64,000 nt of DNA from Thermoplasmata archaeon (GTDB lineage: Archaea; Thermoplasmatota; DTKX01; DATEUP01), in the NCBI GenBank assembly GCA_041485285.1, contig JBGPJF010000004.1, positions 24,468 to 88,467 on the forward strand, read 5' to 3'. Shown here in pieces: positions 8,046-54,199 of the stretch. The notes beneath the pieces are model-generated. The model made no database searches and was not told the DNA's origin. It worked only from the letters and a program-made list of their open reading frames with translations. Each line of letters opens with the position of its first letter. Position 1 is the stretch's first letter. The position numbers and the translations under genes were made by a program.

Positions 8046-8074
8046 TGGTTCAGCCTCGGCCGGCCCCGTCACGA

Positions 8075-8200: not shown

Positions 8201-8303
8201 TTTGTGCGACGGAGGCAGATTCTACGGACGCCGCTGGCAACGCCTCTTTGCGCCCCCCATCGACAAGCGTCCATCCAAAGAGCGCACCGGCCGGCCGGAG
8301 CGT

Positions 8304-8810: not shown

Positions 8811-9136
8811 TGTGCTCCTTTTCCAATTTCTCGCGGAACTCGGCGAGCTGCTCGCGCATAAGGTCTTCGTCCGTCCGGAAGGGGACGCCACGCGCTTTCA
8901 ATTCGTCGAGAAACTCCCAGAGGCTGATGCCCGCCTGGTGGGCGGCTCCCCCGAAGCTGGCCTCCCCACGCTGGTACTGGAGCACTGCCTCGTCCGTGAG
9001 CACCTCGCGCACGCCCTTGTCGAGAGCCCGCCGTATCAGCGAGGACCGCTCCACCTTGAGGCGCTTGGCCGCCTCGGTGAGACGGTCCAGATCCTCGGCG
9101 GGGATCCGGATGGTCGTTATGCGCGCGGCTGCCACG
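8788..9136 (-). CDS. UPF0175-family antitoxin-like protein (ribbon-helix-helix-like N-terminus plus UPF0175 core)
   Basis: Sequence 'ITTIRIPAEDLDRLTEAAKRLKVERSSLIRRALDKGVREVLTDEAVLQYQRGEASFGGAAHQAGISLWEFLDELKARGVPF' matches the family. Putative GTG start at 9134-9136 lies about 24 nt downstream of an AT-rich TATA-like box ('gaattaata', plus strand 9157-9166). The track ORF is extended to 9282, into tfs. Confidence 0.6.
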
Positions 9137-31402: not shown

Positions 31403-31456
31403 GACGATTCCCGTTGCGCGGCTCCGCCTCCACGAGGCGGCCTGGCTCAATTCCGT

Positions 31457-31528
31457 GCGGCTATAGTCTAGCGGTCAGGACTGGAGCTTCCCAAGCTCTA
31501 AACCCGGGTTCAAATCCCGGTGGCCGCA
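31457..31528 (+). tRNA. tRNA-Gly (anticodon CCC), no encoded CCA
   Basis: Cloverleaf by hand. Acceptor GCGGCTA/TGGCCGC plus discriminator A. D-stem AGTC/GACT. Anticodon stem GGAGC/GCTCT with loop TTCCCAA. T-arm CCGGG-TTCAAAT-CCCGG. Confidence 0.8.
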
Positions 31529-31602
31529 TTCCCTCTCCCCACGCGCACCGCGCGCCTCGCGAAAACGGAAACTATTTGGGCGGATGCCCGCCTGGCATTC
31601 GC

Positions 31603-35825: not shown

Positions 35826-36548
35826 TCAGGGCCGGATTTCATCCCACGTGGCGGCCCACGCGTCGAGCAGGTCGTCCCCGAACGACTTCTTGTGGGCGAG
35901 CAGCACCTTGGCCACTTCGCGCTCGTTGAGGACGGTGAAGTAGGTCTCGCGGCCCTCGCGCCTGCGGGAGAGGATCCCGCGCTTCTCGAGTTTCTTGAGG
36001 TGGTAGTGGAGGGTGGAGCCGGAGATCGAGAAGGCTTCGCGCACCTGCCCGAAGTTCAACCCCGGGTTGAGCAGCAGGTGCATAACGATGCGCCGCGGGA
36101 TTTCCTGGCGCAGCGCGCCGATGAGCTCGCGGTCCAAGCCCCCCATTTGGCCCGCGACGTAGTAGCGGCGGTAGATCCCGTCCTCGCGCTCGGTCACAAG
36201 CTCGAGGCGGACGAGTTCGCGCAGGTGGTACTCGACGGTGCCAAGCGGCAGCTGCAGGGCCTGCTGCACCCCGCGCAGGTGGGTGCCCGGGAAGTCGCGG
36301 ACGAACTCGAAGATGATCTGGCGCGTGGATCGCGGGGGCGTGCGGTCGCGGCGCGAGCGCAGCGGGGTCGGCGTCCCTCCCGGCGCCGGCCCCGGCGGCG
36401 GGGCGGGCGGCCCTGAAGGCGGAGGCGGGGGAGGCGGCGGGGCAGGCGGCGCAGGCGGGGGAGGCGGCGGGGCAGGCGGAGGCGCAGCGGCGGCCGCGGG
36501 CCCCGGCGTGGGCGTCGCTCTTCGCTCCGGGGCCCCGTCGTCTGCCAT
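35826..36548 (-). CDS. Transcriptional regulator with two tandem winged-helix (ArsR/TrmB-like) domains and an about 60-aa poly-proline N-terminal tail
   Basis: wHTH1 'FEFVRDFPGTHLRGVQQALQLPLGTVEYHLRELVRLELVTER'. wHTH2 'IVMHLLLNPGLNFGQVREAFSISGSTLHYHLKKLEKRGILSRR'. N-terminus 'PPPAPPPPPPAPPAPPPPPPPPSGPPAPPPGPAPG'. Confidence 0.65.
   Translation of the reverse strand: MADDGAPERRATPTPGPAAAAAPPPAPPPPPPAPPAPPPPPPPPSGPPAPPPGPAPGGTPTPLRSRRDRTPPRSTRQIIFEFVRDFPGTHLRGVQQALQLPLGTVEYHLRELVRLELVTEREDGIYRRYYVAGQMGGLDRELIGALRQEIPRRIVMHLLLNPGLNFGQVREAFSISGSTLHYHLKKLEKRGILSRRREGRETYFTVLNEREVAKVLLAHKKSFGDDLLDAWAATWDEIRP
36415..36500. repeat. Imperfect tandem repeat of about 30 nt (x2-3) inside the poly-Pro coding region of the regulator gene
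   Basis: Sequence 'aggcgggggaggcggcggggcaggcggcgc / aggcgggggaggcggcggggcaggcggaggcgc'. Codes PPPPAPPAPPPP on the minus strand. Likely length-polymorphic. Confidence 0.6.
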
Positions 36549-38535: not shown

Positions 38536-41500
38536 CTAGCACGGCGGCGGCGGGCTGTTCGGGTCGGCAAGGAACTCGCGCGGCACATTGCACCACTCGG
38601 GGTGGCTCGCCGGGTCGCGCGGGTTGAACCAGGGCGACGAGCGCGCCTCGATGACCGTCTTCCAGCCGTCGAGGTCGGGGTCGGCCTCGCGGCCGTTCAC
38701 GCCGGTGCGGTCGGCGTCGTCGAAGCCGAACATGGCCTCGTACCACCGAGGCAGCTGGTCGAAGTCCCGGTCCTTGAAGTACTGCACGAACCCGTCGACC
38801 GGGCCCTGGCAGTTCTGCGCCGCGGCGGTGATCTTCTTGCCCGGGTGCGTCGTGACTTCGTTGATCCCGTCGCCGTCGATATCGTCGCCGAACCAATACT
38901 CCTCGATGTTCGTGAACTGCTCGTTGTCGAGGTAGTCGTCGACCACGCCGTCGCCGTTGAAGTCCCGGCGCGTGATGACCGCGGGGTAGCTGCCGGAGCA
39001 GATGTCAATCGGCTGGCTCGAGTCGACCACGCGGCTGTAGTTCCAGCCGTCGTTGTCGGGGTCCTGGTTCGCGTCGCCCGGGTAGAGGGGGTCGAGGATC
39101 GGCTTGCCGGTCGTTGCGTTGCCAATCGCGTACTGGACTTCCCAGCCGTCCGGCATCCCGTCGCCGTCGGTGTCGGGGTCGAACGCGCTCGTCTTCTTCA
39201 CGGCCTCCACGGTGTTGTTGATCCCGTCGCGGTCGATGTCGCCCGTCGAGTCGCCGCGGCGGACCGGGTTCAGCGCGGTGGCATTGACCGATGGGTTTGT
39301 GGGACGCTTGGAGTGCCACAGGATCACCGGGTCGAGGTCCTTGTCGTCCGTGTAGAACTTCTGGTAATCGACGCGCGTCTGCGTGAAGTTGAAGCTGCCG
39401 TCCACGCGGATGACCGGGTGTCCGGGGTTGTCCCACGCGTCATAGTCCGAGTCGCCCATGCGCGGGTTCGTCGAGATGTGGTTGTAGGGGTCGCGGGCGT
39501 ACACGTACTCCTCCCAGTTCGTCCAGTTGTCCGCGAGGATGACGATGCCCGTGTCAGGGTCAACCTCGTGGGTCGCGTTGAGCTCCTTGTCGAGGTTCGT
39601 GCTGTAATCGGCGGGGTCCGCGGGGTTGAGCCCGTAATAGGACTCCCACCAGTCGGCCATCCCGTCGTGGTCGCCGTCGCAGGAGAGTGGGTTGGCGATG
39701 AACACGTGGTTGTACTTGTCGGGGACCGCTTCGTCGAGGTGCCCGCGGGGCGGGGTGTTGTAGAGGTACTCGTCGAGGTCGAAGAACCCGTCGTTGTCCG
39801 CGTCGGCAGAGCAGCCGTTCGAGGGGACATAGGGGTCGAACAGGTTGGCCTTCTCCCACCAGTCGGGCATCAGGTCGCCGTCGGTGTCCGCGTAGACCGG
39901 GAGCCGCGGGATGTAGAACTTGCCCGGCTGCTCGTTGGTGTCGATGACGCCGTCGCCGTCGGTGTCAAGGTCGATGGGGTTGAGGCGCAGGATGTACTCC
40001 TGCATGTTCGTGAGGCCGTCTCCGTCGAAGTCGTCGTTGACGTCGTCGATGAGGTTCCCGTTGGCGTCGGTCTCCTTGTAGGCGAGCGGGTAGATTCCAA
40101 GGAAGTCGAGCTCCCATTTGGTCGGCAGCCCGTCCCCGTCGATGTCGCTGTTGTCGAATTCGAAGCCGTCCGTGAGCCCGTCGCCGTCGGTGTCGGGGAT
40201 GGTGGGGTCGGTCGAGTCCACCTGCTCCTTGGCCGTGCCCGCGATGAAGTTGCCCGGAATCCAGTCCGTGTTGACCTCGAAGCCGTCTTGGAGTCCGTCG
40301 TTATCCGTATCTGGGTTTAATGGATCCGTACAGCGCGTCACGTTGTCCGTGAACCCAGGCAGGTAGAGCCGCATGCACTCTTCGAGGCCGCCCTCCACCA
40401 CGTGGGGCACCTCGTTGAAGTCGTCGAGCTTGTCGCCGTCGGAGTCCTTCAGGTTCGGGTTCGTCCCCTGGATGCCGGGCTTGCTCTCGTTGCGGTCGGT
40501 GAAGAGTTCGACCCAGTCGGAGAGGCCCTCGAGGTCGGTGTCGGCGTTGGTCGCGTTGGTCTTGTAGATCGTGACCTCGTTCCAGTCGCACAGGTCGTGC
40601 TCCTCGTCGACGCCCTCCGGCAGCCAGGACGAGGGCTCGGTGCCCGCCGGGCCGGCGGTCGGGACCTTGCCAAACGGCCCGTCGTCGATGACGCTGTCGC
40701 CGTCGTTGTCGATGTTGTCGTTCTGCTGGAACTTGGCGTCGCCGTCGTTGTCCACGCCGTCGAGGATCTCCTCGCAGGGCGCCGAGTTGCCATCGCCGTC
40801 TTCGTCATCGGGGTGGTCGTCGATGTCGGTGTCGGCCGTGGTGGCGTCGGTGCGGTAGGAGTAGGTCTTGCCCTCGACGCTGACCGTCCAGGTCTTGGTC
40901 ACTTCGTCGAAGTCGGAGAGGAAATCACCGTCGGTGTCGATGCGCCGCGGGTTGGTGTGGGCGTAGAACTCCTGGAGGTTCGTGAGCCCGTCGGGGGTGA
41001 CCACGCCGCGGGTCAGGTCAACGTCCTGCAGCGCGTCGTTGTGGCACGTGTCAAGGGTGTACTGCGCCTCCCAGCCGTCGGGCATCAGGTCTTGGTCCGT
41101 GTCGTTGTTGCGCGGGTTGAGGCGGCAGCCCGGGTTGTTGTACTCGTTGATGTTCGGAAGGCTGTCGTTGTCGGGGTCCTGGAATTTGTCCGAGCCGTTC
41201 AGCGGCAGCAGGCTGTAGAACACTTCCCAGCCGTCGTCCATCCCGTCGCCGTCGGTGTCGGGGCTGATCGGGTTGGTGCCGAGGATGAGGACTTCCTGCA
41301 TGTCGGCGGTGTTCCAGTCGGTGATCGGGACGCCTTCCTCGGGCACCGGGTAGGTGTCGTTGTCCGAGTCGGCCTGGTCGGGCCGCGTGTGGAGGTAGAA
41401 CTCGTCGATGTTGGTGCCGGCCAGCACGAAGTCGCTCGGCGACACATCGGGGGGGACTTCGCGCAGGCACGTGCCGTTGACGGGGTCGCGCGGCAGGCAC

Positions 41501-42732
41501 TGGCGGTTGGTGAGGGGGCTGTAGTACTCCTGGTAGCTGATCATGATCCCGTCGTTGTCGGGGTCGAGGTGGGCGTCGGTCGTGTTGACGGGGGAGAGGA
41601 AGAAGTCCCAGACCCACTGGAGCACGGTCGAGCCGTTGGTGGCAAGCGCGTGGCCCTTGCCGTAGTGGGCTTCGAACCCGTCCCACATGCCGTCGCCGTC
41701 GGTGTCGCGCAGGAGGGGGTTGGAGCCCGTGAGGCGCCCGCTTCCATCATAGTCGTGCCAGGTCTGGTATTCCTGGATGTTCGGGAACGTCTCGCCGCCG
41801 CGGACTTCGAGCCACCAGTTCTGCGCGTTGTCCGGGTCGACGTGGAAGAGCCCTTCGAGGTTGATGAGGTCGCCTTCGATCCAGCCGCCGGTGCGCTGCT
41901 GCCACGCGGCAAGCTGGGCGGGGCGGCTCGAGCCCGAGGTGAGTTCGACGCGCAGGTCGCACTCGTCGCGCGGGGTGTAGAGGGTCGCCAGCCCTTCCGA
42001 GCGGGTGGTGGTGTCGGTGACATGGACGTTGAGGGCGGAGGAGGGGTTGGTGTCGGGGTCGCCGTAGGTGCCGTTGTCCATCACGGCGGTGCGGTCGAAC
42101 CGCACGAGGAGGCCGTCGTAGGCGAGCTGGTTCTGCGAGAGGGCGCACACACCGAGGGTGGTGTACTGCGACTTCGGGGGGATCGAGAGGTTCGAGCGCA
42201 GGACCGAGTCCTGGTAGGAGTCGACGCGGTTGTTGTTGTTGAAGTCGTAGCCGTCGTTGTCGGGGTCTTCGTAGGCGTCGGTGGGGTCGACGGGGTCGAT
42301 GACCAGTTCGCGGGTCTCGCTGTTGCGGGTGTCCTTGTACTGGACTTCCCAGGGGTCGGGCATCCCGTCGCCGTCGGTGTCGACCTTGTTGACGTCGGTG
42401 CCGTAGATGTAGTTCTCATCGATGTCGAAGAGGCCGTCGTTGTCGCTGTCGATGCCGGGGATGTGGGGGGTGGGCTGGAGGGCCGAGAGAGGCTCCTGGC
42501 CGACGGGCTTGTACACGCCCGCGGTTTGCGAGGACAGGAACGCGGCCACGACAATCATGAGGAGGGAGGCGGCGATGAGTACCGCGACCACGAGGATTTC
42601 GAGGTTGAGCGTGGGGAGCCACGAGCCTTTCTCCTCGGTGGCAGGGGCCTCGGGGCCCAGCGTGGTTGCTCTCGAACCAACGGCCGGGGTCGCCACGATA
42701 TTTCCCTTCCCGCACCATCTTGTTGCATTCAA
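38536..42732 (-). CDS. Giant (1398 aa) surface protein built of calcium-binding thrombospondin-type-3-like Asp-rich repeats, with an N-terminal signal anchor
   Basis: More than 25 copies of 'DxDxDGxxDxxE'-type motifs ('DTDGDGMPDPWE', 'DTDGDGMDDGWEVFY', 'DSDNDTY', 'DPDNDG'). N-terminal TM 'LEILVVAVLIAASLLMIVVAAFL'. Confidence 0.7.
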   Translation of the reverse strand: MNATRWCGKGNIVATPAVGSRATTLGPEAPATEEKGSWLPTLNLEILVVAVLIAASLLMIVVAAFLSSQTAGVYKPVGQEPLSALQPTPHIPGIDSDNDGLFDIDENYIYGTDVNKVDTDGDGMPDPWEVQYKDTRNSETRELVIDPVDPTDAYEDPDNDGYDFNNNNRVDSYQDSVLRSNLSIPPKSQYTTLGVCALSQNQLAYDGLLVRFDRTAVMDNGTYGDPDTNPSSALNVHVTDTTTRSEGLATLYTPRDECDLRVELTSGSSRPAQLAAWQQRTGGWIEGDLINLEGLFHVDPDNAQNWWLEVRGGETFPNIQEYQTWHDYDGSGRLTGSNPLLRDTDGDGMWDGFEAHYGKGHALATNGSTVLQWVWDFFLSPVNTTDAHLDPDNDGIMISYQEYYSPLTNRQCLPRDPVNGTCLREVPPDVSPSDFVLAGTNIDEFYLHTRPDQADSDNDTYPVPEEGVPITDWNTADMQEVLILGTNPISPDTDGDGMDDGWEVFYSLLPLNGSDKFQDPDNDSLPNINEYNNPGCRLNPRNNDTDQDLMPDGWEAQYTLDTCHNDALQDVDLTRGVVTPDGLTNLQEFYAHTNPRRIDTDGDFLSDFDEVTKTWTVSVEGKTYSYRTDATTADTDIDDHPDDEDGDGNSAPCEEILDGVDNDGDAKFQQNDNIDNDGDSVIDDGPFGKVPTAGPAGTEPSSWLPEGVDEEHDLCDWNEVTIYKTNATNADTDLEGLSDWVELFTDRNESKPGIQGTNPNLKDSDGDKLDDFNEVPHVVEGGLEECMRLYLPGFTDNVTRCTDPLNPDTDNDGLQDGFEVNTDWIPGNFIAGTAKEQVDSTDPTIPDTDGDGLTDGFEFDNSDIDGDGLPTKWELDFLGIYPLAYKETDANGNLIDDVNDDFDGDGLTNMQEYILRLNPIDLDTDGDGVIDTNEQPGKFYIPRLPVYADTDGDLMPDWWEKANLFDPYVPSNGCSADADNDGFFDLDEYLYNTPPRGHLDEAVPDKYNHVFIANPLSCDGDHDGMADWWESYYGLNPADPADYSTNLDKELNATHEVDPDTGIVILADNWTNWEEYVYARDPYNHISTNPRMGDSDYDAWDNPGHPVIRVDGSFNFTQTRVDYQKFYTDDKDLDPVILWHSKRPTNPSVNATALNPVRRGDSTGDIDRDGINNTVEAVKKTSAFDPDTDGDGMPDGWEVQYAIGNATTGKPILDPLYPGDANQDPDNDGWNYSRVVDSSQPIDICSGSYPAVITRRDFNGDGVVDDYLDNEQFTNIEEYWFGDDIDGDGINEVTTHPGKKITAAAQNCQGPVDGFVQYFKDRDFDQLPRWYEAMFGFDDADRTGVNGREADPDLDGWKTVIEARSSPWFNPRDPASHPEWCNVPREFLADPNSPPPPC

Positions 42733-42988: not shown

Positions 42989-43014
42989 CCATGGAGGGGG
43001 ATACCCCTCCATGG
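42989..43014 (+). promoter_or_regulatory. Perfect 11-bp-stem hairpin overlapping the transposase start codon (probable translational attenuation of transposase)
   Basis: Sequence 'CCATGGAGGGG-GATA-CCCCTCCATGG'. The 3' arm contains the ATG at 43011. Confidence 0.5.
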
Positions 43015-44111
43015 TCCTACACGTCCGTGAGATCTCGAACGACGAGGGCAACCGCCTCTCCCGCCTCGTGAAGCGAACGAACAACGTTGTCACGATGCGT
43101 CGCGCACAGGTTCTCCTTCATTCCGCCCAAGGATTCACTCCACCGAAGATCGGCGAGATGCTCTGGATCTCGACAGACTGGGTCCGGCACATCATCAAGG
43201 AGTTCAACGAGCAGGGGTTCGATTCCCTGCGCCCGAAGCCGCGCGGGGGCGGGCGCCCCCGCGTGTTCGACGACGAGATTCGACTGGAGATGGTCAACCT
43301 CGCCCTCACGCCACCCCGAACGCTCGGGTACCCTTTCGAGAAGTGGTCGCTGCGCAAGCTGCGCGAGGCGATCATCGAACAGGGAATCGTTGCGGACATC
43401 AGCGTCTCGAACGTCCAGAAGATCATGACGGAGGAGATGCTCGGCTACCAAGTCGTGAAGACCTGGAAGGAGAGCAAGGACCCCGACTTCCACGAGAAGA
43501 AGAGTCGGGTCGACCGCCTCACGCGCAAGCGCCACAACCCTCCCGTCGTGATCGCGTACGACGAGTTGGGGCCGCTCGAATTGCGGCCCATCAAGGGCGG
43601 GCACTGGGCGCGGTCGGGGCACCCCGACCGCGTGCCGGCCACGTACAAGCGGAAGGGCGGGACGAGGCAGTTCCTTGTGGCGTTCAATTTCTACAAAGGG
43701 ACTTTCTTCGGGCGCCTTCGAAAGCGCAAGCGCTCGAAGGAGATCTTCGCCTTTTTCCGGCTCGTCCGTCGGCACTACCCAGCGGACCAACGGATCTACC
43801 TGATCATGGACAACCTGTCGGCGCACCTCACGCCCGAAATCCGCGTGTGGGCCAAGGCCCACAAGGTTACGCTCGTCCAGACCCCGACGAACGCCTCGTG
43901 GTGCAACCCGATCGAGGCGCACTTTGCAAGCGTGCGGACGCTCGCCTTTTCGGGGACCAACCACCAAGATTGGAGCGCTGCGGGCCGCGCGCTCCACAAG
44001 GCGCTTCGATGGAAGAACTCGCACCGCAAGGAGATGCTGCAGGCGCGCGAGGACCGCCGGCGGAGGCGCCGGCGGCAGCTCTGGCGAGTACGGGCAAATG
44101 TAGGAGCCTAG
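43011..44111 (+). CDS. IS630-family transposase (HTH plus DDE domain)
   Basis: N-terminal HTH, 'DELGPLELRP', 'LIMDNLSAHLT', 'NASWCNPIEAHF' (DD(34)E-type). Confidence 0.85.
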   Translation: MVLHVREISNDEGNRLSRLVKRTNNVVTMRRAQVLLHSAQGFTPPKIGEMLWISTDWVRHIIKEFNEQGFDSLRPKPRGGGRPRVFDDEIRLEMVNLALTPPRTLGYPFEKWSLRKLREAIIEQGIVADISVSNVQKIMTEEMLGYQVVKTWKESKDPDFHEKKSRVDRLTRKRHNPPVVIAYDELGPLELRPIKGGHWARSGHPDRVPATYKRKGGTRQFLVAFNFYKGTFFGRLRKRKRSKEIFAFFRLVRRHYPADQRIYLIMDNLSAHLTPEIRVWAKAHKVTLVQTPTNASWCNPIEAHFASVRTLAFSGTNHQDWSAAGRALHKALRWKNSHRKEMLQAREDRRRRRRRQLWRVRANVGA

Positions 44112-44118: not shown

Positions 44119-44814
44119 TCACGGCACTAGTTCGCCGGGCTTGCCGTCGCGCCGAAGGAGCGCGCGGCGCGACCGGACGAAGCGTTGCACGGCGGTGGCG
44201 TGGCCGAGGACGGCGAAGGCAAGGAGGAGCGCGGTGATGGGCGTGATGATTTGGGGAGCCGAATAGGGCGGCCTCCACGGGACGTTCACGGCGAATGTGA
44301 CGGAGAGACCGGCGACGACCAGCACGCCTTGGAGGAGGGGGACGGCGGTAAGGAGCACGAGCCGGTCGACGCGACCGAGCACCCCGCGGTAGTCGCGCTT
44401 GAGGCCGACGGCCGAGGCTTGGGTCGCGATGTAGCTTGTGAGGAACACGCCGGTGAGGGCGAAGAAGCCCCAGCGCAGGTTGCCGAAGGCGGAGAACGCG
44501 AGGCCGCCGATGATGAAGAGGTCGCCGTAGCGGTCGAGGGCGTGGTCGAGGAAGTCGCCGGCCTTTGATGCCGTCCCCGCGCGACGCGCGACGAGGCCGT
44601 CGAGGCCGTCGAACACGCCGGAGACAAAGACGAGGAGCCCCCCTAGAATGAGCAGCCATGCGCTCGCGGCCGACGCGAGCGCGAAGCTCACGCCGGCTGC
44701 GCCCGCCAGGCCAACGGAGATCCAGCTGATGCGGTCGGCGCCGAGCGGGGCGAGGCGGTCAGCGAGCGGCCCGAGCACGGCCTCGCCGCGCGCGCGCTGC
44801 TTGTCTAGCACCAT
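44119..44814 (-). CDS. CDP-alcohol phosphatidyltransferase family protein (archaeal phospholipid synthase). Start at the internal Met 'MVLDKQ'. The last 3 codons plus stop lie inside the IS630 right inverted repeat.
   Basis: Sequence 'FDGLDGLVARRAGTASKAGDFLDHALDRYGD' is the D-G-x2-A-R-x8-G-x3-D-x3-D motif. About 6 TM helices. Confidence 0.75.
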   Translation of the reverse strand: MVLDKQRARGEAVLGPLADRLAPLGADRISWISVGLAGAAGVSFALASAASAWLLILGGLLVFVSGVFDGLDGLVARRAGTASKAGDFLDHALDRYGDLFIIGGLAFSAFGNLRWGFFALTGVFLTSYIATQASAVGLKRDYRGVLGRVDRLVLLTAVPLLQGVLVVAGLSVTFAVNVPWRPPYSAPQIITPITALLLAFAVLGHATAVQRFVRSRRALLRRDGKPGELVP

Positions 44815-45359
44815 GCGGGGGCCTCCTCGAGGTAGTCGATGCGGCCGGCGCGCAGCGAGGTGGCTTTCCCGGCGGCAACGCGCATGACCGCCCCGGCAGC
44901 ATGGGGCGCTCGCGCCCCGCCTGTCGAAAACTCGAACACGCGGCGCACCCCGAGCCGTTCGACGGCCTCGGTGGCGATCACGCCAACCGCCTCGGCGCAG
45001 ACATTCTCGCGGACCTTGGGCTCCGCCCACCCGCGCCGCCGCAGCCGCCGCGCCAAAAGCGGCGGCGGGCAGCGCAGTACGAGCGCGCAGTCGACCGACA
45101 GGAAGTGGGCGAGGTGCCCTTCGAGCACAAGGGGCGCCGCTTGGGGGAACGCCTTGGCGCGCTTCGACACCGCGCGGTCGAGCGCGTGCACATCGACCTC
45201 GAACGACCCGCGCCGTTGGTCGCGGGCGCCGAGCAGCCCCGCGCGCGCGGCCTCCGCGTTCAGCGAGAGCACCGGAACCCCGCGGCGAGAAAGCGCGGCG
45301 CCAACGGCGCTCTTGCCCGTGCCCGGCGTGCCGGTGAGTGCGACCCTCACAGGCCGCAA
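44805..45359 (-). CDS. P-loop nucleotide kinase, Fap7/adenylate-kinase-6-like
   Basis: Walker A 'LTGTPGTGKSAV' and a size of about 180 aa. Fap7 is the usual partner of Nob1 in small-subunit rRNA maturation. Confidence 0.55.
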   Translation of the reverse strand: MRPVRVALTGTPGTGKSAVGAALSRRGVPVLSLNAEAARAGLLGARDQRRGSFEVDVHALDRAVSKRAKAFPQAAPLVLEGHLAHFLSVDCALVLRCPPPLLARRLRRRGWAEPKVRENVCAEAVGVIATEAVERLGVRRVFEFSTGGARAPHAAGAVMRVAAGKATSLRAGRIDYLEEAPAWC

Positions 45360-45413
45360 TCAGCCGGGTCAAAGGCTTTAACTTTCGCCAGGGCGCTTGC
45401 AAGAATCGGTTCC

Positions 45414-46604
45414 ATGGCGAAACCGGCTTCGATCGACGAAATGACGGTGGGCGACGCGCTGGAACCCATCAAGGCGACGGTCGGCCAAGATGCCACGCTT
45501 GCCCAAGCCCTGGGCGCGATGAAGAAAAACGGGCTCCACGACCTCGCGGTGATGGGCCCGAAGGGCGAGCTGCTCGGAATCCTCTCCGACGAGACGCTGC
45601 TCAAGCGGCGGCGCCTCCCCCTCGGGTCGCACGTGTCGAACCTGCTGGTGGTCCCTCCGCGGATCACCACCGACGAGCCGCTGGCGAAGGGCGCGGAGGC
45701 GCTGCTCTCCAACGGCCTGCGGGAGCTGCCCGTCTTCCAGCCCGGGGGCAAGACCGTTGCCGGCCAGATCTCGCGGTGGGGGCTTCTCGAGATCCTGCGC
45801 CGCGACCCTGAAATCGCAAAGCTGCCGGCCCATGCGGTCATGACGCCCGACCCGGTCGTGGTGAAGGAGAGCGACACCATCGACCACGCCATCGACGAGA
45901 TGCGCAGGCTCGACGAGCCCACGATCCCAGTCGTGGACAAGGGCGGCGACTTGGTGGGCGTCGTGAGCGCGCGCGACATCCTGCGGTTGTACGCCGGTTG
46001 GGCGGCCCAGCCGCGGGTGCCGAAGGGCTCGGTCAAGGGCAAATCGGCCTCGAGGGCAACGGTCGAGGGCGTCATGACCTCGCCGGTGGTCGAGGCCAAC
46101 CGGGACGCAACCGTCGAAGAGCTTTCCTCGCTCATGCTCGAATCGAAGGCCTCCTCGGTCGTGATCACGGACAACGAGAAGCCGAAGGGCATCGTGACGA
46201 AGGGCGACTTGCTCGAACTTCTGGCGTCGGTTGCCCCGCGCGAGGGCTGCTTCCTGCAGGTCACGGGGCTCGAAGGCCACGACCCCTTTTTGCTCGAGGA
46301 CGTGTTCAGCGTGATCGAGCCGGGGATTCAGCGGATCGCCGTGCACGCGAAGCCCATGACGTTCAACGCGCATGTGATGGAGCACCACCGGACCTACGGA
46401 CACCGCGGCGAGGTGCGCGCGCGCCTGCAGACGGACCGCGGCCTGTTCACGGCCACGGCGGAAGACGAAGACGTGCTGCGGGCGGTCGACTCCGTGCTCC
46501 AGCGGCTGGAGAGCCAGGTGCGCCGCGACAAGGAGAAGCACCGCCCGAGCCCGAACAAGGCGCGCGCCGGCGCGATGCCGCGCGGGCGCGCGAAGCTGCA
46601 GTAG
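45414..46604 (+). CDS. Four-CBS-domain (two Bateman modules) protein fused to a C-terminal HPF/RaiA (ribosome hibernation factor, S30AE) domain
   Basis: CBS signatures four times ('LHDLAVMGPKGELLGILSDETLL', 'LPVFQPGGKTVAGQISRWGLL', 'IPVVDKGGDLVGVVSARDIL', 'VVITDNEKPKGIVTKGDLL'). The C-terminus 'FLQVTGLEG...GEVRARLQTDRGLFTATAEDEDVLRAVDSVLQRLESQVRRDKEKHR' aligns with E. coli HPF '...[34 protein letters not shown]'. Confidence 0.7.
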   Translation: MAKPASIDEMTVGDALEPIKATVGQDATLAQALGAMKKNGLHDLAVMGPKGELLGILSDETLLKRRRLPLGSHVSNLLVVPPRITTDEPLAKGAEALLSNGLRELPVFQPGGKTVAGQISRWGLLEILRRDPEIAKLPAHAVMTPDPVVVKESDTIDHAIDEMRRLDEPTIPVVDKGGDLVGVVSARDILRLYAGWAAQPRVPKGSVKGKSASRATVEGVMTSPVVEANRDATVEELSSLMLESKASSVVITDNEKPKGIVTKGDLLELLASVAPREGCFLQVTGLEGHDPFLLEDVFSVIEPGIQRIAVHAKPMTFNAHVMEHHRTYGHRGEVRARLQTDRGLFTATAEDEDVLRAVDSVLQRLESQVRRDKEKHRPSPNKARAGAMPRGRAKLQ

Positions 46605-46625: not shown

Positions 46626-46943
46626 TTGGAGCGGGCCCCCGCCGAAAGCCGTCCGGACGCCACGCCCCACAAGGGCTCTTCGAAGAGAGCCTATGCGGCC
46701 GTCGGCGCGGGCCTCTCGGTGTGCGCCGCGGCCCTCACTTTCGTGGTCGCGAACATGACCTCGTGGATTCTATTCCACGACCCTGGCGCCTTTCCTGCCT
46801 CGAACTATGGGCGAATTGATGCGGTCGGCCTCATCCTGTTCTGGGCGATCGACGGGACAGTCATCGCGATCACCGCACTGATCTGGGTTCGCGGTGTGTT
46901 TGCGCCCGACCCTCTGTCTCCGCTCGCGCTCCGCGACCCCTAG
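46626..46943 (+). CDS. Small membrane protein
   Basis: Sequences 'LSVCAAALTFVVANMTSWILF' and 'AVGLILFWAIDGTVIAITALIWV'. Confidence 0.35.
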   Translation: MERAPAESRPDATPHKGSSKRAYAAVGAGLSVCAAALTFVVANMTSWILFHDPGAFPASNYGRIDAVGLILFWAIDGTVIAITALIWVRGVFAPDPLSPLALRDP

Positions 46944-47965
46944 CGCGGCTCCGGCAATCCCCACTGCTTGGCCTGCACCGCCTGCGCGCGTTCGACCGCC
47001 ACGGTGCCGACGGCCCGGTAGTCCTTGACCTCGTTCAGCGACGTCGAAAACGGCTTGCCTTCCACGGATGCCGCGATACCCGCAACCGTCTCCGCGAGCG
47101 CCAAGAGGTTGTACCCGCCCTCGAGCACGAACACCGCGGGCATCTTGGCGTTCTGGCGCGCGAACTTCGCCACGCGCGTGCACAGGTCGATGTACGCCCC
47201 CGAGGTGAGCGTGAGCCCCGCGAGCGGGTCCTCGTAGTGCGCGTCGAGGCCGAGCGACACGATCACGGCTTTCGGCTTGGACTGCTCGAGGACGGGGAGC
47301 AGCACGCGGTCCCACGCGAGGCGGAAGGTGGCGTCGCCCGACCCCTCGGGGAGCGGGATGTTCACGATGCGGCCCACGCCCGCGCCTTCGCCGACTTCCT
47401 CGACGCTCCCGGAGTTGGGGTAGATCCCTTCTTGGTGGGTCGAGAGGTACACAATGTCCTTGCGCGACTGGAAGATCTCCTGCGTCCCGTTGCCGTGGTG
47501 CACATCGAGGTCGACGATGGCCACGGGGGAAAGGCCCTCCTCCTTCGAGAGGTGGTGCGCGGTGACAGCGGCGTTGTTGAAGTAGCAGAACCCGCCGGCA
47601 AAGGCGGTGCCCGCGTGGTGCCCGGGGGGACGCGTGAGCGCGAAGGCCTCCTCGTTCTTTGACATCGCGTGGCGCGCGGCGGCAAGGGCGGCCCCCGCCG
47701 CGATGAGCGCCAGCTGGTAGGTGCCTGGCCGAATGAACGTGTCCGCGTCGTAGGCGCCTTCCTTCGTGTGCATGATCTTCTCGACGAAGGCCTCGTCGTG
47801 CACGTGGCACACATCGCGCTTGCCTGCAGGGGCGGGTTTGATGAACCCGTCCAGGCGCCCTTCCGTCTCCAGCCGATCGACAATTGCCTGGAGCCGCTCC
47901 GGCCGTTCGGGGTGGCCGGCCCACTGGACATGCTCCAGCGACCGAGGGTGATAGACGAACTTCAC
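46940..47965 (-). CDS. Histone deacetylase / acetoin-utilisation AcuC-family deacetylase
   Basis: Motifs 'RPPGHHAG', 'GFCYFNNAA', 'VDLDVHHGNGTQ', 'SLGLDAHYEDPLAGL'. Confidence 0.8.
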   Translation of the reverse strand: MKFVYHPRSLEHVQWAGHPERPERLQAIVDRLETEGRLDGFIKPAPAGKRDVCHVHDEAFVEKIMHTKEGAYDADTFIRPGTYQLALIAAGAALAAARHAMSKNEEAFALTRPPGHHAGTAFAGGFCYFNNAAVTAHHLSKEEGLSPVAIVDLDVHHGNGTQEIFQSRKDIVYLSTHQEGIYPNSGSVEEVGEGAGVGRIVNIPLPEGSGDATFRLAWDRVLLPVLEQSKPKAVIVSLGLDAHYEDPLAGLTLTSGAYIDLCTRVAKFARQNAKMPAVFVLEGGYNLLALAETVAGIAASVEGKPFSTSLNEVKDYRAVGTVAVERAQAVQAKQWGLPEPR

Positions 47966-48058: not shown

Positions 48059-48502
48059 GTGACCCCGGGGGGGTTCGGAACGGTCGGAGATGAGATCCTA
48101 AAGCGGGCCCGCCGACCCGGCGGGGCCCCCGCGAAACCCCGCATTATCCCCAACCTGGCTGCCCCCCCAGCGGCGCCAAGGCCCCCCCCGGCGCCTCCGC
48201 CCCCGGTCCTCACCGTCAACCCCAACGCCGTAGTCACGCGCCGCGACCTAGAGGTCGTGGCCTCAGTCTGGAACCTCTCGGAGGAGCTCTTCGGCCGTCT
48301 GGAGGGGATGAAGCTCTCCGACCTGCAGGTCGCCACCTCGATCTCGAAGGACTTCAAGCGTGACCTGATCGCGGTCGTCGAGCGCCGGCTGTCCCCGCGC
48401 AAGGTGCGCCCAGGCGGCACCAGCGACAGCGGGATGGACGACGGCGGCGGGCCCGCTCCAACGGGCGGCGGCGGCGGGGCCGTCGGCGGCGGCGACATGT
48501 AA
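48059..48502 (+). CDS. Hypothetical protein (Pro-rich N-terminus, Gly-rich C-terminus); coding status uncertain
   Basis: Only ORF in the 600-bp gap between the HDAC and rps6e genes. No recognisable domain. Confidence 0.3.
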   Translation: MTPGGFGTVGDEILKRARRPGGAPAKPRIIPNLAAPPAAPRPPPAPPPPVLTVNPNAVVTRRDLEVVASVWNLSEELFGRLEGMKLSDLQVATSISKDFKRDLIAVVERRLSPRKVRPGGTSDSGMDDGGGPAPTGGGGGAVGGGDM

Positions 48503-48600: not shown

Positions 48601-49056
48601 ATGGTCGAATTCGTCGCCGTGGTGTCGGACCCCAAGGGTGGGAAGTCCTTCCAGTCGAAGGTCGTCGGGCACCTTGCCAATTCGCTCGTCGGCAAGAAGA
48701 TCGGCGACGAGATCGACGGCATCTTCGTCCAGCTCCCCGGCTACAAGCTGAAGATTACGGGCGGCTCCGACCGCGCCGGGTTCCCGATGATCGCCGCGCT
48801 GCCGGGAACGCGCTACCGCCGGCTGCTTGCCACCAAGGGCCCTGGGTTCCGCTCGACCACGCGCCACAAGAAGAAGCGCGACAAGCCGACGCACGAGGCG
48901 GGCCTGCGCAAGAAGAAGCCCGTGCGCGGCAACACAATTTCCCCGGAGACCTCGCAGGTCAACCTGAAGATCACGACCCGCGGCGCCAAGCCGATTGAGG
49001 ACCTCCTCAAGGCCGAGGCGAAGAAGGCGGACGAGAAGGGCCCGGAGAAGAAGTAG
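48601..49056 (+). CDS. rps6e: 30S ribosomal protein S6e
   Basis: Sequence 'VGKKIGDEIDGIFVQLPGYKLKITGGSDRAGFPM...KKKRDKPTHEAGLRKKKPVRGNTISPETSQVNLKI'. TATA-like 'cttatatc' about 45 nt upstream. Confidence 0.9.
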   Translation: MVEFVAVVSDPKGGKSFQSKVVGHLANSLVGKKIGDEIDGIFVQLPGYKLKITGGSDRAGFPMIAALPGTRYRRLLATKGPGFRSTTRHKKKRDKPTHEAGLRKKKPVRGNTISPETSQVNLKITTRGAKPIEDLLKAEAKKADEKGPEKK

Positions 49057-49891
49057 CGCGGGTGCCGCGGGACGCGATGGCGTCGCGGTCGAACCCCCGC
49101 ACCACGCGCAGCAGGTCGAGGGCGCTTTCCACATCGAGGTCGACCAGGCGCGAGGCGACCGGCGACCAGAACTTCTCGATGTGCCCCTCGGTGGCCTCGA
49201 GCACGACGAAGGGCTGCTCGGGGCCGAACAGCCACCGTTCCGCCCCCACTTCTTCGAGGGCGCGGCGCGCGTGCGCGCCGGCCGGCGCGCCCCACTCGGG
49301 CGTCCCGTCGTCCTGCCCGCTGCGCCGGAGCAGGCTGCGCAGCGCCGCCTCTTCCTGCGAGGGGAGCCCGAGCGACTCGGGGGTCGCCCCCCCGAGGAAG
49401 CGGGAACGCTTGGGCGCAAGCAGGAGCACACCGCTCTCCTTGCACGTCCACGCGCAGCGGACGCCGACCACCTGCACCGCCCAGAGCACGTTCACATTCA
49501 CGTAGACCGCAAGCTCGAGGGGGTAGCGCTCGTCGGAGGAGCGCGCGCGCACTTCCATCCCGGCGCCGAGCGCCCCGGAATGGGGCGCACGGATCCAGTA
49601 GATCCGCACGCCGGTGGCTTCGAGGCTGCCGGCCGACGCAAGCGCCCGCCGCACGACGCCGACGGCGCGCGCGTAGGCCGCGCAGTACGCGGAAAACCAG
49701 AACGCGGCGAGCGCGAGCCACAGGAGCGGGCTCTGAATGGCCGCAAGCCCGCGGGCCGCGCTCCACCCGAGCACGACGAGGGCAAACACGCCGAACCCGA
49801 CGGCGGCGATTGCAAGCTGCGCGCGGCGCGCGCCCGGCAGCGACTGGAGGCGCGGGACTTCGGCGTCGACATCGCCGTCCAGTGTTGACAT
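49007..49891 (-). CDS. Hypothetical membrane-associated protein (convergent with rps6e; start uncertain)
   Basis: Two N-terminal TM helices ('LAIAAVGFGVFALVVLGW', 'LLWLALAAFWFSAYCAAYA'), then a soluble domain. No family. Confidence 0.3.
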   Translation of the reverse strand: MSTLDGDVDAEVPRLQSLPGARRAQLAIAAVGFGVFALVVLGWSAARGLAAIQSPLLWLALAAFWFSAYCAAYARAVGVVRRALASAGSLEATGVRIYWIRAPHSGALGAGMEVRARSSDERYPLELAVYVNVNVLWAVQVVGVRCAWTCKESGVLLLAPKRSRFLGGATPESLGLPSQEEAALRSLLRRSGQDDGTPEWGAPAGAHARRALEEVGAERWLFGPEQPFVVLEATEGHIEKFWSPVASRLVDLDVESALDLLRVVRGFDRDAIASRGTRATSSPGPSRPPSSPRP

Positions 49892-50055
49892 GGCCGCCTC
49901 CTGCTCCGCGCCCGACCCTTGCCAAAGCGGCCCGGGGGGAAAACGGTTTGCTCGTCCGCGCGCCGCCCCGCATCCAGCGCGAGAAATCCGCGGGGGTGCG
50001 GGAAAACCGGGAAATACCCCTTGCCCCTTCCGCCACCTCCCAAGGAAGGCGCCGC

Positions 50056-51291
50056 GTGAAGGTTCCCCAAGCCCCTGAGATCAACATTGGCGTCGTGGGC
50101 CACGTCGACCACGGCAAGACGACGCTCACCAAGGCGCTCACGGGCGAATGGACGGACCGGCACAGCGAGGAAGTCAAGCGCGGCATCTCGATCAAGCTCG
50201 GCTACGCCGACGCGGCGTTCTACAGGTGCGAGAACGAGGAGGGCGCGAAGGCCTACTCGGTGAAGAGCGAGTGCCCGCACTGCGGCAAGCCCACGAAGCT
50301 CATCCGGACCGTCTCCTTCGTCGACGCGCCGGGCCACGAGACGCTGATGGCGACCATGCTCACCGGCGCGTCGCTGATGGACGGCGCGCTCCTGCTGGTG
50401 GCGGCCAACGAAAAGTGCCCCCAGCCCCAGACCAAGGAGCACCTCGTCGCCCTGCAGATCGCGGGCATCGAGAAGATCGTCGTCGTGCAGAACAAAGTCG
50501 ACCTCGTCACCATCGAGCGGGCGAAGGAATCGTACAAGGAAATCCAGGCGTTCCTCAAGGGCACCGGCGCCGAGAAGGCGCCGATCATCCCCGTCTCGGC
50601 GCACCACGACGTGAACATCGACGCGCTGCTCGAAGCGATCGACAAGACGATCCCGTCGCGCGAAAACGACCCGAAGCAGGCGGCGAGGATGTATGTCTCG
50701 CGCTCTTTTGACGTGAACCGCCCCGGCACGCGCCCGAGCGACCTGCGCGGCGGCGTGTTCGGCGGATCGCTGATCCAAGGGTCGCTCAAGGTCGGCGACG
50801 AGGTGGAGATCGTCCCGGGCCGCAAGGTCGAGGAAGAGGGCCGCACGCGCTGGGAAAACTTGCAGACAAAGATCGTCTCGCTCATGGTCGGCGGCCAGTC
50901 GGTCGCCGAGACCCACTCGGGCGGCCTCATCGCGGTCGGCACGGCCATCGACCCGGCGTTCACGAAGGCCGACTCGCTGGTCGGACGCATGCTCGGGCGT
51001 CCCGGCTCGCTGCCGAAGCAGATTCAGAAGACGACGATCGAGGCCCACCTGCTCGACTACGTGGTGGGCGCGGGCGAGGACATCAAGGTCGAGAAAATCC
51101 GGACCGCGGAGTTGCTGATGCTCTCGATTGGCGCGGCGACCGATGTCGGGACGGTCAAGGGGATGTCCGGCACGAAGATCGACCTCGACCTCAAGATGCC
51201 CGTGTGCGCCGAGCTGGGCGACCGGGTGGCAATCTCGCGGCGGTTCGGCGCCAGGTGGCGGCTGATCGGCCACGGCCTGATCCTCAAGTGA
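50056..51291 (+). CDS. eif2g: Translation initiation factor 2 subunit gamma (aIF2-gamma)
   Basis: GTG start. G1 motif 'GVVGHVDHGKTTL'. The zinc knuckle 'CPHCGKPTK' is typical of a/eIF2-gamma. 'DAPGHE', 'NKVD'. Confidence 0.9.
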   Translation: MKVPQAPEINIGVVGHVDHGKTTLTKALTGEWTDRHSEEVKRGISIKLGYADAAFYRCENEEGAKAYSVKSECPHCGKPTKLIRTVSFVDAPGHETLMATMLTGASLMDGALLLVAANEKCPQPQTKEHLVALQIAGIEKIVVVQNKVDLVTIERAKESYKEIQAFLKGTGAEKAPIIPVSAHHDVNIDALLEAIDKTIPSRENDPKQAARMYVSRSFDVNRPGTRPSDLRGGVFGGSLIQGSLKVGDEVEIVPGRKVEEEGRTRWENLQTKIVSLMVGGQSVAETHSGGLIAVGTAIDPAFTKADSLVGRMLGRPGSLPKQIQKTTIEAHLLDYVVGAGEDIKVEKIRTAELLMLSIGAATDVGTVKGMSGTKIDLDLKMPVCAELGDRVAISRRFGARWRLIGHGLILK

Positions 51292-51303: not shown

Positions 51304-51690
51304 GTGGGGGGAGCCGCGCCGCGCGAGCGCATCGTGCTTGTCGATGCAAACGGCCTCTTTACGGCCGCGAGGCTGCGGCTGGACATCATGAAGAAGTTGC
51401 AGAAGGCGGCGCCGGGGTGGACGGCGGTCGTCCCCGAGAGCGTGGTGCGCGAGCTCGAGGTCGTGGGGCACCGGAAGTTCGCAGGCGAAGCGCGTGCGCT
51501 CGCAGAGCGACTGCCACTACTCGCGAACGAAGGTCGGGGGGACGCCGCTATCCTCGCGGCAGCGGTCGCGGGCCCCAAGCGCGCGGTGCTTACGAACGAC
51601 CGGGCGCTGCGCGTGGCGTTGCGCGCCAAAGGCGTGCCGGTCTTGTTCGTCCGCGGAAGCGCGACGATCGAAGTGGACGGCGCCCTATAG
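51304..51690 (+). CDS. PIN domain protein (the conserved PIN ORF that follows eIF2-gamma in archaea)
   Basis: Sequence 'IVLVDANGLF...LTNDRAL' with PIN acidic residues. Conserved synteny with eif2g. Confidence 0.7.
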   Translation: MGGAAPRERIVLVDANGLFTAARLRLDIMKKLQKAAPGWTAVVPESVVRELEVVGHRKFAGEARALAERLPLLANEGRGDAAILAAAVAGPKRAVLTNDRALRVALRAKGVPVLFVRGSATIEVDGAL

Positions 51691-52792: not shown

Positions 52793-54199
52793 ATGGCCCC
52801 CCGCGCGGCGCGCCTCTGGATCGCGGCGCTTTTGGTTTGCCTGCTTGCGCCATCGCTTGCGGCCGCCGACGACCAGGGCAGCGTCGGCGCGACGGTGAAG
52901 CTCGACCAAAGCGCGCTGACCGCGAGCATGTATCACGTGACGGCGGATTTGCGGGTTCCATTCACCGGCACCGTCCACATCACGACGGACCGCGGACACC
53001 GCGTTGCCCTCACCCTGACGGTGGTCGGCGGCAGCTGGGTTTCCGACATCGCCCCCTCGCCGTTCCCGCCCTCGCAGACGACGACCGATGTCCGCGTCAC
53101 GGGGTGGGTCGAGGTGCCGCGCCAAGTCGCCGAAGGCGTCTACTCCCTAGCGCTGCGCGCCAGGGACAATGATACCATCTTCCCGATCGACACGCAGGCC
53201 CCGTTCACGGTCTCGGTCTTCCGCGGCCCGCTTGCGATCTTCCCCGCGGCCGAGGGGAAAACGCTCTTGCCGGGCGGCGCCGCCCGCTGGAACCTGACGC
53301 TGCGGAACCTTGGCTCGTTCGACTTCGACTTCGATGAGGCGTTCACGGTCCCGACCGGCTTCACCTATTCGGTCGTGAACCCGGGCATCCAGATCCTCAA
53401 CGCGGGCGACGAGGCGTACGTGCTCGTGACGGTCCGCGCGGGCGCGACGGTGATTGCGGGGGACTACACCTGGTCGGTCGCGGTCTCCTCCAGCTCGAAC
53501 CCCGAGGTCTCCACCTCCACCACCATCCCCTACTCGGTCGACCGCATTGTCGCGACGCCCCCCACGGGCACGCCTGACTTCCTCGGACAGTACTGGGTGG
53601 CGATCAGCATCGGCATGTTCGCGGTCGGAATCGTCGCGTACTTCTCGCTCACCGAAGTCGGGTACCTCGCCCTCTCGTTCTCCGTCCTCGTCCCCCTATT
53701 CACCCGCATCCGCCACGAGAAAGTCCTCGACAACTTCACGCGCGGGCAGATCTTCGGCTACATCCAGGCCAACCCCGGCGCGCACTACTCCGCGATCCAG
53801 CAGGTGCTCGACATCGAAAACGGGGTGCTGGCGTACCACCTGCGCGTCCTGCTGCGCGAGGAGTTCGTGGTGGCGCGCAACGAAGGCGTGTTCAAACGCT
53901 TCTATCCGCGCGACTACAAGATCCCGAAGGGCCGCACGCTGCTCACGCGCCTCCAAGTCGACATCCTCGAAGCGGTCGAGAAGTCGCCGGGCATCTCGCA
54001 GCGCGATGTCGCGTACGCGCTTGGCGAGTCGAAGCAGGTGATTTCGTACAATGTGGGCGTCCTGCGCGAGGCCGGCATCCTCAGCGGGGAGCGGCGCGGC
54101 CGCGAGGTGCTCCTGCGCGCCGTTGGCCCCACGAGCGGCAAGCGCGACCCCGAAGACGTCGCAGGCGCGACCGCCCCGTCCGACCTCACTTCGCTCTGA
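52793..54199 (+). CDS. Membrane-anchored transcription regulator: signal peptide, extracellular CARDB-like beta-sandwich domains, 2 TM helices, then a cytoplasmic tandem winged-helix (ArsR/MarR-like) pair
   Basis: Signal 'LWIAALLVCLLAPSLAAA'. 'NLTLRNLGSFDFDFDEAFTVPTGFTYSV'. TM helices 'YWVAISIGMFAVGIVAYFSL' and 'GYLALSFSVLVPLF'. wHTH1 'IFGYIQANPGAHYSAIQQVLDIENGVLAYHLRVLLREEFV'. wHTH2 'ILEAVEKSPGISQRDVAYALGESKQVISYNVGVLREAGIL'. Confidence 0.6.
   Translation: MAPRAARLWIAALLVCLLAPSLAAADDQGSVGATVKLDQSALTASMYHVTADLRVPFTGTVHITTDRGHRVALTLTVVGGSWVSDIAPSPFPPSQTTTDVRVTGWVEVPRQVAEGVYSLALRARDNDTIFPIDTQAPFTVSVFRGPLAIFPAAEGKTLLPGGAARWNLTLRNLGSFDFDFDEAFTVPTGFTYSVVNPGIQILNAGDEAYVLVTVRAGATVIAGDYTWSVAVSSSSNPEVSTSTTIPYSVDRIVATPPTGTPDFLGQYWVAISIGMFAVGIVAYFSLTEVGYLALSFSVLVPLFTRIRHEKVLDNFTRGQIFGYIQANPGAHYSAIQQVLDIENGVLAYHLRVLLREEFVVARNEGVFKRFYPRDYKIPKGRTLLTRLQVDILEAVEKSPGISQRDVAYALGESKQVISYNVGVLREAGILSGERRGREVLLRAVGPTSGKRDPEDVAGATAPSDLTSL

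Follow-up and report, generated by a model that had tools for sequence, protein, structure and literature searches.

In this work we analysed a gene of an uncultured Thermoplasmata archaeon that fuses four CBS domains to a domain of the HPF/RaiA type, within a 64,000-nucleotide stretch of contig JBGPJF010000004.1 (the window, to whose first letter all positions refer). The gene, which we call hibA, occupies positions 45414..46604 on the + strand, with an ATG at 45414 and a stop codon ending at 46604, and its open reading frame (ORF) is intact, with 396 codons plus the stop codon, as read from the ORF and its translation. We conclude that it very probably encodes a ribosome hibernation factor of the HibA/AHA family, by family and by role. 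The domain composition, fold, family membership, nucleotide-site and core 30S-contact motifs and archaeal origin presented below were all computed for the window protein. A first-pass annotation of this DNA, made from the sequence alone, had placed the fusion at 45414-46604; checking the ATG and stop positions showed these coordinates to be exact, and the peptide strings it cited are present in the translation. A longer ORF starting at 44901 was also considered and rejected. The additional 5′ stretch runs into a well-supported kinase gene on the opposite strand and is missing from homologues, about 25 close relatives being 396 amino acids (aa) long and beginning with MAK or MAR; for these two reasons the ATG at 45414 was taken as the start.

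A protein 100% identical to the hibA product exists in public data. The closest species-representative genomes that carry hibA are metagenome-assembled genomes of Thermoplasmatota/Thermoplasmata, with 66, 64 and 50% identity, which bears out the archaeal origin assumed in the first-pass annotation. The flanking S6e, aIF2-gamma and Fap7-like genes are archaeal as well, in agreement with an archaeal host, and the hosts of the HibA/AHA/Hib family are archaeal, with a few exceptions in Patescibacteria. GC content ranges from 62 to 71% along the window, and the host is a mesophile-like archaeon with 66% GC.

The N-terminal part of the protein, residues ~9-272 (45438..46229, +), is a CBS tetrad made of two Bateman modules. 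Pfam CBS recognizes four stretches in the whole 396-aa protein (E 2e-38), and the full-length AlphaFold2 model, with a mean predicted local distance difference test (pLDDT) score of 82 that rises to ~90 over the CBS cores, shows four CBS units followed by an HPF-like domain at residues 280-375. Searched with Foldseek against the Protein Data Bank (PDB), this model matches SriA/B/D, Dri, MJ1225 and AMPK-gamma with target-normalised TM scores of 0.6-0.77. The four N-terminal CBS domains of the first-pass annotation are thus recovered by all three approaches. The full-length search, in which the CBS module dominates the alignment, returned CBS-tetrad proteins only and no HibA entry from a PDB library extending to 2026-04-08, and the C-terminal domain was modelled separately for this reason.

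CBS3 and CBS4 (residues 141-272, 45834..46229, +) carry the predicted adenine-nucleotide site or sites, recognized by G-h-h-S/T-x-x-D motifs. This ribose/phosphate motif is intact in CBS3 (GVVSARD, residues 182-188) and in CBS4 (GIVTKGD, residues 259-265), and G182, D188, G259, T262 and D265 are invariant across 19 homologues. The motif is degenerate and lacks the Asp in CBS1 (GILSDET) and CBS2 (GQISRWG). Aligned with phmmer, Pyrococcus abyssi HibA likewise has canonical nucleotide motifs in CBS3 and CBS4 only, and the nucleotide sites of the published HibA and AHA proteins are located between these two domains (PMC13324472, PMC12934967). The CBS3/CBS4 pair of the window protein most likely binds adenosine monophosphate (AMP) and, more weakly, the di- and triphosphates (ADP and ATP), as judged from its motifs and by analogy with these homologues. 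CBS3 also contains an extended loop, residues ~195-216 (45996..46061, +), which the alignment and the model identify as the probable counterpart of the HibA 'PTC loop' and the AHA 'loop 3'. It aligns to P. abyssi residues 190-207, with a similar length and at the same place, and is the sole internal segment modelled with low confidence (pLDDT <50 at residues 197-210). Its sequence is kept within the clade (YAGWAAQ.RVPKGS) and differs from that of P. abyssi; by analogy, the loop possibly reaches the peptidyl-transferase centre (PTC).

The 270-aa tetrad is followed by the HPF/RaiA-like domain (46245..46544, +), after which only a 19-aa basic tail remains. This assignment is supported by Pfam, by a profile search of the PDB, by the AlphaFold2 model and by Foldseek. 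PF02482 (Ribosomal_S30AE), whose gathering score is 23.7, reaches 29.6 bits on the whole protein and 32.0 bits on the C-terminal 122 aa. A profile built from these C-terminal 122 residues only, using 19 homologues, was run against all PDB sequences; HPF of Thermus thermophilus ranks first (E 4e-7), almost every further match is to an HPF, RaiA, YfiA, protein Y or 'S30' chain or to one of two archaeal CBS-HPF chains, and unrelated chains (Pol I, arrestin) appear from E ~0.4 only. The separate model of the domain has a mean pLDDT of 84.7 and the order beta1-alpha1-beta2-beta3-beta4-alpha2, with strands at model positions 6-10, 40-52, 55-66 and 70-77 and helices at 17-35 and 80-101. Compared with the PDB by Foldseek, its best 38 matches are all hibernation factors (38/38, target-normalised TM up to 0.81), namely plastid pY, HPF of Vibrio, Coxiella, Listeria, Borrelia and Escherichia coli, mycobacterial MPY/RafH, and RaiA/YfiA, while the first unrelated match is a protein of the double-stranded RNA-binding domain type (E 6e-3). 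The C-terminal HPF/RaiA call of the first-pass annotation therefore stands, far above what chance would give, on the Pfam score, the PDB profile matches and the fold matches alike; the profile check for S30AE/HPF that it had proposed recovers this family, and the sequence profile together with Foldseek excludes a different ferredoxin-like alpha/beta fold.

Two features of this half of the protein have counterparts among published ribosome contacts. In the beta3-beta4 hairpin, the motif R335-x-R337-x-x-T340-D341-R-G343 matches R336, T339, D340 and G342 of P. abyssi HibA, residues that contact h31, h29 and uS9 on the 30S subunit (PMC13324472). The basic C-terminal tail, residues 378-396 (PSPNKARAGAMPRGRAKLQ, 46545..46601, +), was delimited by its conservation in the clade (RPSP.KAR.G...G.AK) and is disordered in both models. 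In P. abyssi HibA, tail residues 378-386 lie close to the mRNA exit channel, in contact with h23, uS7, uS11 and eS28 (PMC13324472), and by analogy the tail of the window protein would be the counterpart of the HibA tail in ribosome contact.

Over the whole protein, the best sequence match among solved structures is 9sr9_H, a 392-aa chain deposited as 'Dehydrogenase' (phmmer E 1.8e-20). Residues 21-377 align to 15-376 of this chain in a single collinear run that spans both modules; 9SR9 and its sister entries are the P. abyssi HibA-ribosome structures (PMC13324472). A second solved archaeal CBS-HPF chain, the haloarchaeal-looking 9l96_a, matches at E 4e-16, and a search of the literature library found no paper for PDB code 9L96. 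With P0072, a distant representative of the family, BLASTP aligns 379 aa at 34% identity (E 3e-64). When the C-domain profile was run against 1.84 billion cluster representatives, it retrieved 347 of them at E<=1e-3, of which 133 reach E<=1e-10; among the best 150 of the 347, 107 are at least 354 aa long and carry the HPF-like domain at their C-terminal end. All of ten sampled fusions carry three to four CBS stretches, yet only three pass the Pfam S30AE gathering score and four have no S30AE match. Because so few pass this score, most members bear no other name than 'CBS domain-containing protein', and counts of the CBS-HPF family by domain come out too low. Proteins closely related to that of the window carry the JGI pipeline label 'CBS domain-containing protein/ribosome-associated translation inhibitor RaiA'.

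The fusion of four CBS domains to HPF was already described in 2025-2026, independently, by several groups as HibA, AHA or Hib, and the gene is no longer new. HibA was reported by Madru et al. (bioRxiv Oct 2025, Nat Commun Apr 2026; PMC13324472), AHA of Haloferax volcanii (HVO_2384) by Souza et al. (bioRxiv Feb 2026; PMC12934967), and Hib was named in the Sri preprint as a SriA-RaiA/HPF fusion (PMC13004131). HibA/AHA/Hib is present in 42-47% of archaeal genomes or species (PMC13324472, PMC12934967, PMC13004131), and the fusion is now recognized as being, among hibernation factors of archaeal ribosomes, the most widespread. The premise of the first-pass annotation, that such factors are poorly defined in archaea, has thus been overtaken by these publications. 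Its call from raw sequence was a true positive that before late 2025 would have been a strong discovery; the window now contributes one further member, from an uncultured Thermoplasmatota lineage, to a family for which structures, nucleotide data, knockouts and surveys of thousands of archaeal genomes exist.

The closest solved match is HibA (P. abyssi PAB0961, Thermococcus barophilus F0LKU5; PDB 9SR9-9SRF and 9T7H), with which the window protein is collinear over both modules, shares canonical nucleotide motifs in CBS3 and CBS4 only, and keeps the T-D-x-G hairpin of the h29/h31/uS9 contact. It differs from HibA by a low identity, by its CBS3 loop and other 50S-contact residues (see below), and by its host, HibA hosts being hyperthermophilic Thermococcales. 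AHA, likened here by description, belongs to the same family with the same 4xCBS-HPF fusion; its HPF domain lies in the A/P-site region of the 30S, its CBS tetrad is placed on the 50S, where loop 3 lies in the PTC, and two AMP molecules are bound at the CBS3/CBS4 junction (PMC12934967). AHA is an acidic halophile protein, whereas the window protein is not acidic and has a strongly basic tail.

Bacterial HPF/RaiA proteins (YfiA, pY) and plastid PSRP1 share the fold of the window C-terminal domain and detectable sequence homology with it, and the 30S site of the bacterial proteins is the same as in the characterized archaeal homologues (PMC12934967). These proteins are either standalone, with ~95-115 aa, or long HPFs with a C-terminal dimerization domain, and all are without an N-terminal CBS tetrad. 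The dimerization domain that drives 100S formation in long HPF is missing from the window protein, and the published HibA and AHA structures are 70S complexes, not 100S dimers. The beta2-beta3 hairpin is longer in the window protein (13 and 12 residues) than in bacterial HPF, which fits the archaeal-specific insertions of HibA. The tetrad itself is structurally closest to the SriA-D or ARC-P/ARC-A proteins of Methanosarcina and Methanolobus and to Dri of Thermoproteota: the best Foldseek match is 9znf_4, from a SriA/B complex (E 2e-21), and 9zng, 9zni, 9e6q and 9e7f are also among the closest. The CBS tetrads of Sri, Dri and HibA are evolutionarily related ribosome-binding modules, and the genomic occurrence of Sri/Dri is anti-correlated with that of Hib/AHA (PMC13004131, PMC12934967). 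Unlike the window protein, Sri, ARC and Dri have no HPF/RaiA domain, Sri proteins come in tandem pairs from clustered genes, and Dri consists of two tetrads. A search of all six frames of the 64-kb window with a family hidden Markov model found no second CBS/HPF paralogue and no Sri-like cluster. AMPK gamma and archaeal MJ1225 have in common with the window protein the CBS-tetrad fold and adenylate sites 3 and 4, but neither of the two has an HPF domain, and AMPK gamma acts as part of a kinase heterotrimer rather than on the ribosome.

By analogy with these homologues, the HPF/RaiA-like domain and the basic tail would occupy the mRNA/tRNA channel and decoding region of the 30S, and the CBS tetrad would fill the tRNA sites of the large subunit, its long CBS3 loop possibly at the PTC. 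A single chain would clamp idle 70S ribosomes, block translation and shield the ribosome pool in starvation or stress. HibA has been seen on ribosomes by cryo-electron microscopy in three conformations, and it inhibits in vitro translation, for which its C-terminal domain is required (PMC13324472). Deletion of hibA in T. barophilus leaves ~60% fewer 70S ribosomes and delays regrowth (PMC13324472), and deletion of AHA in H. volcanii causes ribosomal-protein depletion, a ~4-fold lower viability and a competitive defect (PMC12934967). In both proteins the CBS module binds the large subunit and the PTC directly (PMC13324472, PMC12934967). The hibernation role proposed for a CBS-HPF fusion in the first-pass annotation has thus been demonstrated in HibA and AHA, while the direct contact of the CBS domains with the large subunit and PTC had not been anticipated.

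Several observations weigh against a straightforward equation of the window protein with these factors. About three quarters of the aligned positions differ from P. abyssi HibA. The NCBIfam equivalog model TIGR00741 (HPF/YfiA) aligns to residues 300-376 with 28.2-31.3 bits, below its cutoff of 40.9; since the Pfam model passes and the equivalog model fails, the C-terminal domain appears as a homologue of bacterial HPF/YfiA within a protein that is no equivalog of them. The published ribosome contacts of P. abyssi HibA (Supplementary Data 1, PTC state) were mapped via the phmmer alignment, whose loop regions are unreliable for this purpose. Identity was found at 13 of 45 residues that contact the 30S and at 13 of 62 non-contact residues in the C-terminal domain, which is no enrichment, and at only 2 of 28 50S/PTC-contact residues against 64 of 227 non-contact residues in the N-terminal domain. 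As far as the alignment allows, this test adds no support for an identical binding mode, and the large-subunit binding mode may differ from that of P. abyssi HibA because the 50S/PTC contact residues have diverged. Placement of the HPF-like domain on the 30S is a safe inference from its homology and its hairpin. For the window protein and its lineage, binding to ribosomes and adenylates, inhibition of translation and physiology are all inferred from characterized homologues.

An alternative to a ribosomal function would be that the protein is a CBS-tetrad regulator whose main role lies elsewhere, with replication or recombination proteins or in HhpR-like transcription, and whose HPF-like domain has been repurposed as an interaction module. 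In Thermococcales, replication and recombination proteins were indeed recovered in HibA pull-downs (PMC13324472), the diversification of CBS tetrads has produced transcription factors, HhpR among them, and the window protein has a weak match to the NCBIfam HhpR model; this match reaches 38.7 bits, far under the cutoff of 520. Moreover, of the two halves of the protein, the one with the HPF-like domain is more conserved within the clade (mean column identity of 73%, compared with 70% overall), the 30S-contact hairpin motif is kept, and the same architecture acts on ribosomes, with matching phenotypes, in two distant archaea (PMC13324472, PMC12934967). We therefore regard a mainly non-ribosomal role as highly improbable and retain the assignment as a hibernation factor, for which the question becomes how its action is controlled. 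The first-pass annotation had proposed a CBS-gated HPF that couples ribosome silencing to energy charge. Adenylate binding and the hibernation role agree with what was found for HibA and AHA, but gating of ribosome binding by energy charge is, by the same comparison, unproven. Such a switch, in which the AMP-bound form silences ribosomes, ATP at CBS3/CBS4 releases them and energy charge sets the hibernating fraction, would agree with the conserved motifs in CBS3 and CBS4, with the order of affinities of HibA (AMP > ADP > ATP, with a dissociation constant of 12 uM for AMP; PMC13324472) and with the two AMP molecules of ribosome-bound AHA, whose levels are constant across growth phase, which suggests post-translational control (PMC12934967). 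In the related CBS-only ARC/Sri system, ATP is moreover reported to trigger mobilization off the ribosome. Against this, 5 mM AMP or ATP left the conformational classes and binding of HibA unchanged, save for one weakly populated extra state with ATP, and the authors could not conclude on a direct role of ATP in release (PMC13324472). This result, which also counts among the observations that weigh on the transfer of function to the window protein, makes us consider an adenylate-gated switch possible but rather doubtful.

A different kind of control is suggested by the gene downstream of hibA, which is convergent to it and encodes an HDAC6-like class II deacetylase (46940-47965, -; PF00850, Pfam E 4.5e-86), with HDAC6 catalytic domains as best PDB matches (E 1e-88). 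Reversible lysine acetylation could control the availability of the hibernation factor or its affinity for ribosomes, the adjacent deacetylase acting as eraser and a GNAT enzyme, encoded elsewhere or next door, as writer. The convergent pair is also found at the homologue loci L002, L003, L004, L071/72, L073 and L076, where the deacetylase genes lie at 7201-8220 (L002), 1371-2390 (L003), 7200-8882 (L004), 5199-6218 (L071), 4728-5687 (L073) and 4205-5212 (L076). It persists beside homologues of only 31% (L073) and 34% (L076/L077) identity, although the remaining neighbours differ; the L076 deacetylase is 52% identical to that of the window, and at this locus hibA is preceded, 58 nt upstream and in the same orientation, by a gene for a GNAT acetyltransferase. 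In H. volcanii, AHA (HVO_2384) is reported to be acetylated at K311 and K313, in the region of its HPF domain, and to co-purify with an inactive variant of the GNAT Pat2 (PMC12607858). In the window protein itself, the alpha1-beta2 loop has a lysine at its own position 313, where most of the clade has K or R. HDAC6 is a protein-lysine deacetylase. However, no such pair was found at five other homologue loci (L005, L074/75, L079/80, L081 and L083), and all the loci that bear it could belong to one phylum, in which case inherited gene order is sufficient to account for it. Convergent genes are not co-transcribed, enzymes of the PF00850 type also deacetylate polyamines and small molecules, and Pat2 failed to acetylate HVO_2384 in vitro (PMC12607858). 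Residue numbers in 9l96_a also do not agree with K311 and K313. The two main family papers mention neither acetylation of the factor nor its gene neighbourhood (PMC13324472, PMC12934967). Control by acetylation is in our view unlikely. If true, it could be a missing regulatory input, because adenylates alone show no visible control of HibA ribosome binding. The neighbouring deacetylase, together with the acetylation reported in Haloferax, provides a modest lead towards the control of its loading onto and release from ribosomes.

On its other side, hibA is divergent to a gene for a putative kinase of the Fap7/AK6 type (44805-45350, -; Pfam AAA_18, E 3e-20). NCBIfam PRK03839 'putative kinase' matches it under the cutoff, its best PDB match is 4cvn, a 'putative adenylate kinase' (E 1e-17) which we take to be P. 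abyssi Fap7, and human AK6/CINAP also match. Kinases of the Fap7/AK6 type are biogenesis factors of the small ribosomal subunit. This gene also adjoins hibA at L002, L004 and L071. It is followed by an archaetidylinositol-phosphate-synthase-like gene of the CDP-alcohol phosphatidyltransferase type (44119-44814, -). Beyond the deacetylase lie a 147-aa hypothetical gene (48059-48502, +), the S6e gene (48601-49056, +), that of aIF2-gamma (within 49810-51291, +) and a PIN_9 gene (51304-51690, +). The first-pass annotation had correctly noted rps6e and eif2g near the gene, and with the Fap7-like kinase these place hibA among translation-related genes. The block CDP-alcohol transferase-kinase-hibA-HDAC-S6e-aIF2-gamma, followed across loci by pairwise protein comparisons and Pfam, is kept down to 51% HibA identity.

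The divergent intergenic region between hibA and the kinase gene is 63 bp long (45351..45413) and on direct reading contains a single AT-rich box, CTTTAACTTT, at 45376-45385. This box is ~34 nt from the hibA ATG and ~30 nt from the kinase ATG on the opposite strand, and these distances suggest a shared bidirectional archaeal TATA element giving near-leaderless transcripts both ways. A scan for sigma-70 promoters and intrinsic terminators around hibA, which is inapplicable to archaea, gave 0 promoters and 1 terminator-like site, with no excess over shuffles.

The gap between hibA and the deacetylase gene measures 335 nt in the window and 7-21 nt at L002, L003 and L071. The extra DNA holds a 105-aa membrane ORF (46626-46943, +) with two predicted hydrophobic helices, no family match and a lower GC content at third codon positions (GC3, 0.79); it may encode a small lineage-specific membrane protein or be non-coding insert DNA. 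On the kinase side, an IS630-type transposase gene (43011-44111, +; 366 aa, with DDE_3 and helix-turn-helix domains) looks like a lineage-specific insertion, because it is missing from the equivalent position at L071/L072; a search of its flanks for terminal inverted repeats gave no convincing result. The next gene, at 38536-42732 (-), encodes a large, 1398-aa repeat protein (GC3 0.93), probably secreted or exposed at the surface, whose sole Pfam match is one bacterial TSP3 repeat. A similar protein of ~1354 aa is found at the same position at L071/L072.

Further observations concern the annotation of the region. The mechanical ORF of aIF2-gamma has 493 aa, with the GTPase domain starting at residue 91, and the L071 orthologue has 412 aa; the true start is probably ~80 codons downstream of the mechanical one. 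An opposite-strand ORF (49007-49891, 294 aa, high GC3, no family match) overlaps the 5′ region of the aIF2-gamma ORF. CBS modules can also bind S-adenosylmethionine, and at L083 (1848-4287) an S-adenosylmethionine synthetase gene overlaps by 17 nt the start of a hibA-like gene encoding a distant homologue (P0061, 428 aa), with a standalone 165-aa CBS-pair protein encoded nearby. A tRNA-Gly(CCC) gene (31456-31529) is the sole match of tRNA and Rfam scans over the whole window. Two regulators of the HVO_0163 type, with an N-terminal helix-turn-helix and a winged helix (MarR/ArsR-like), are encoded at 35826-36548 (-) and 52793-54199 (+), the latter being a 468-aa protein whose N-terminal ~310 aa have no match.

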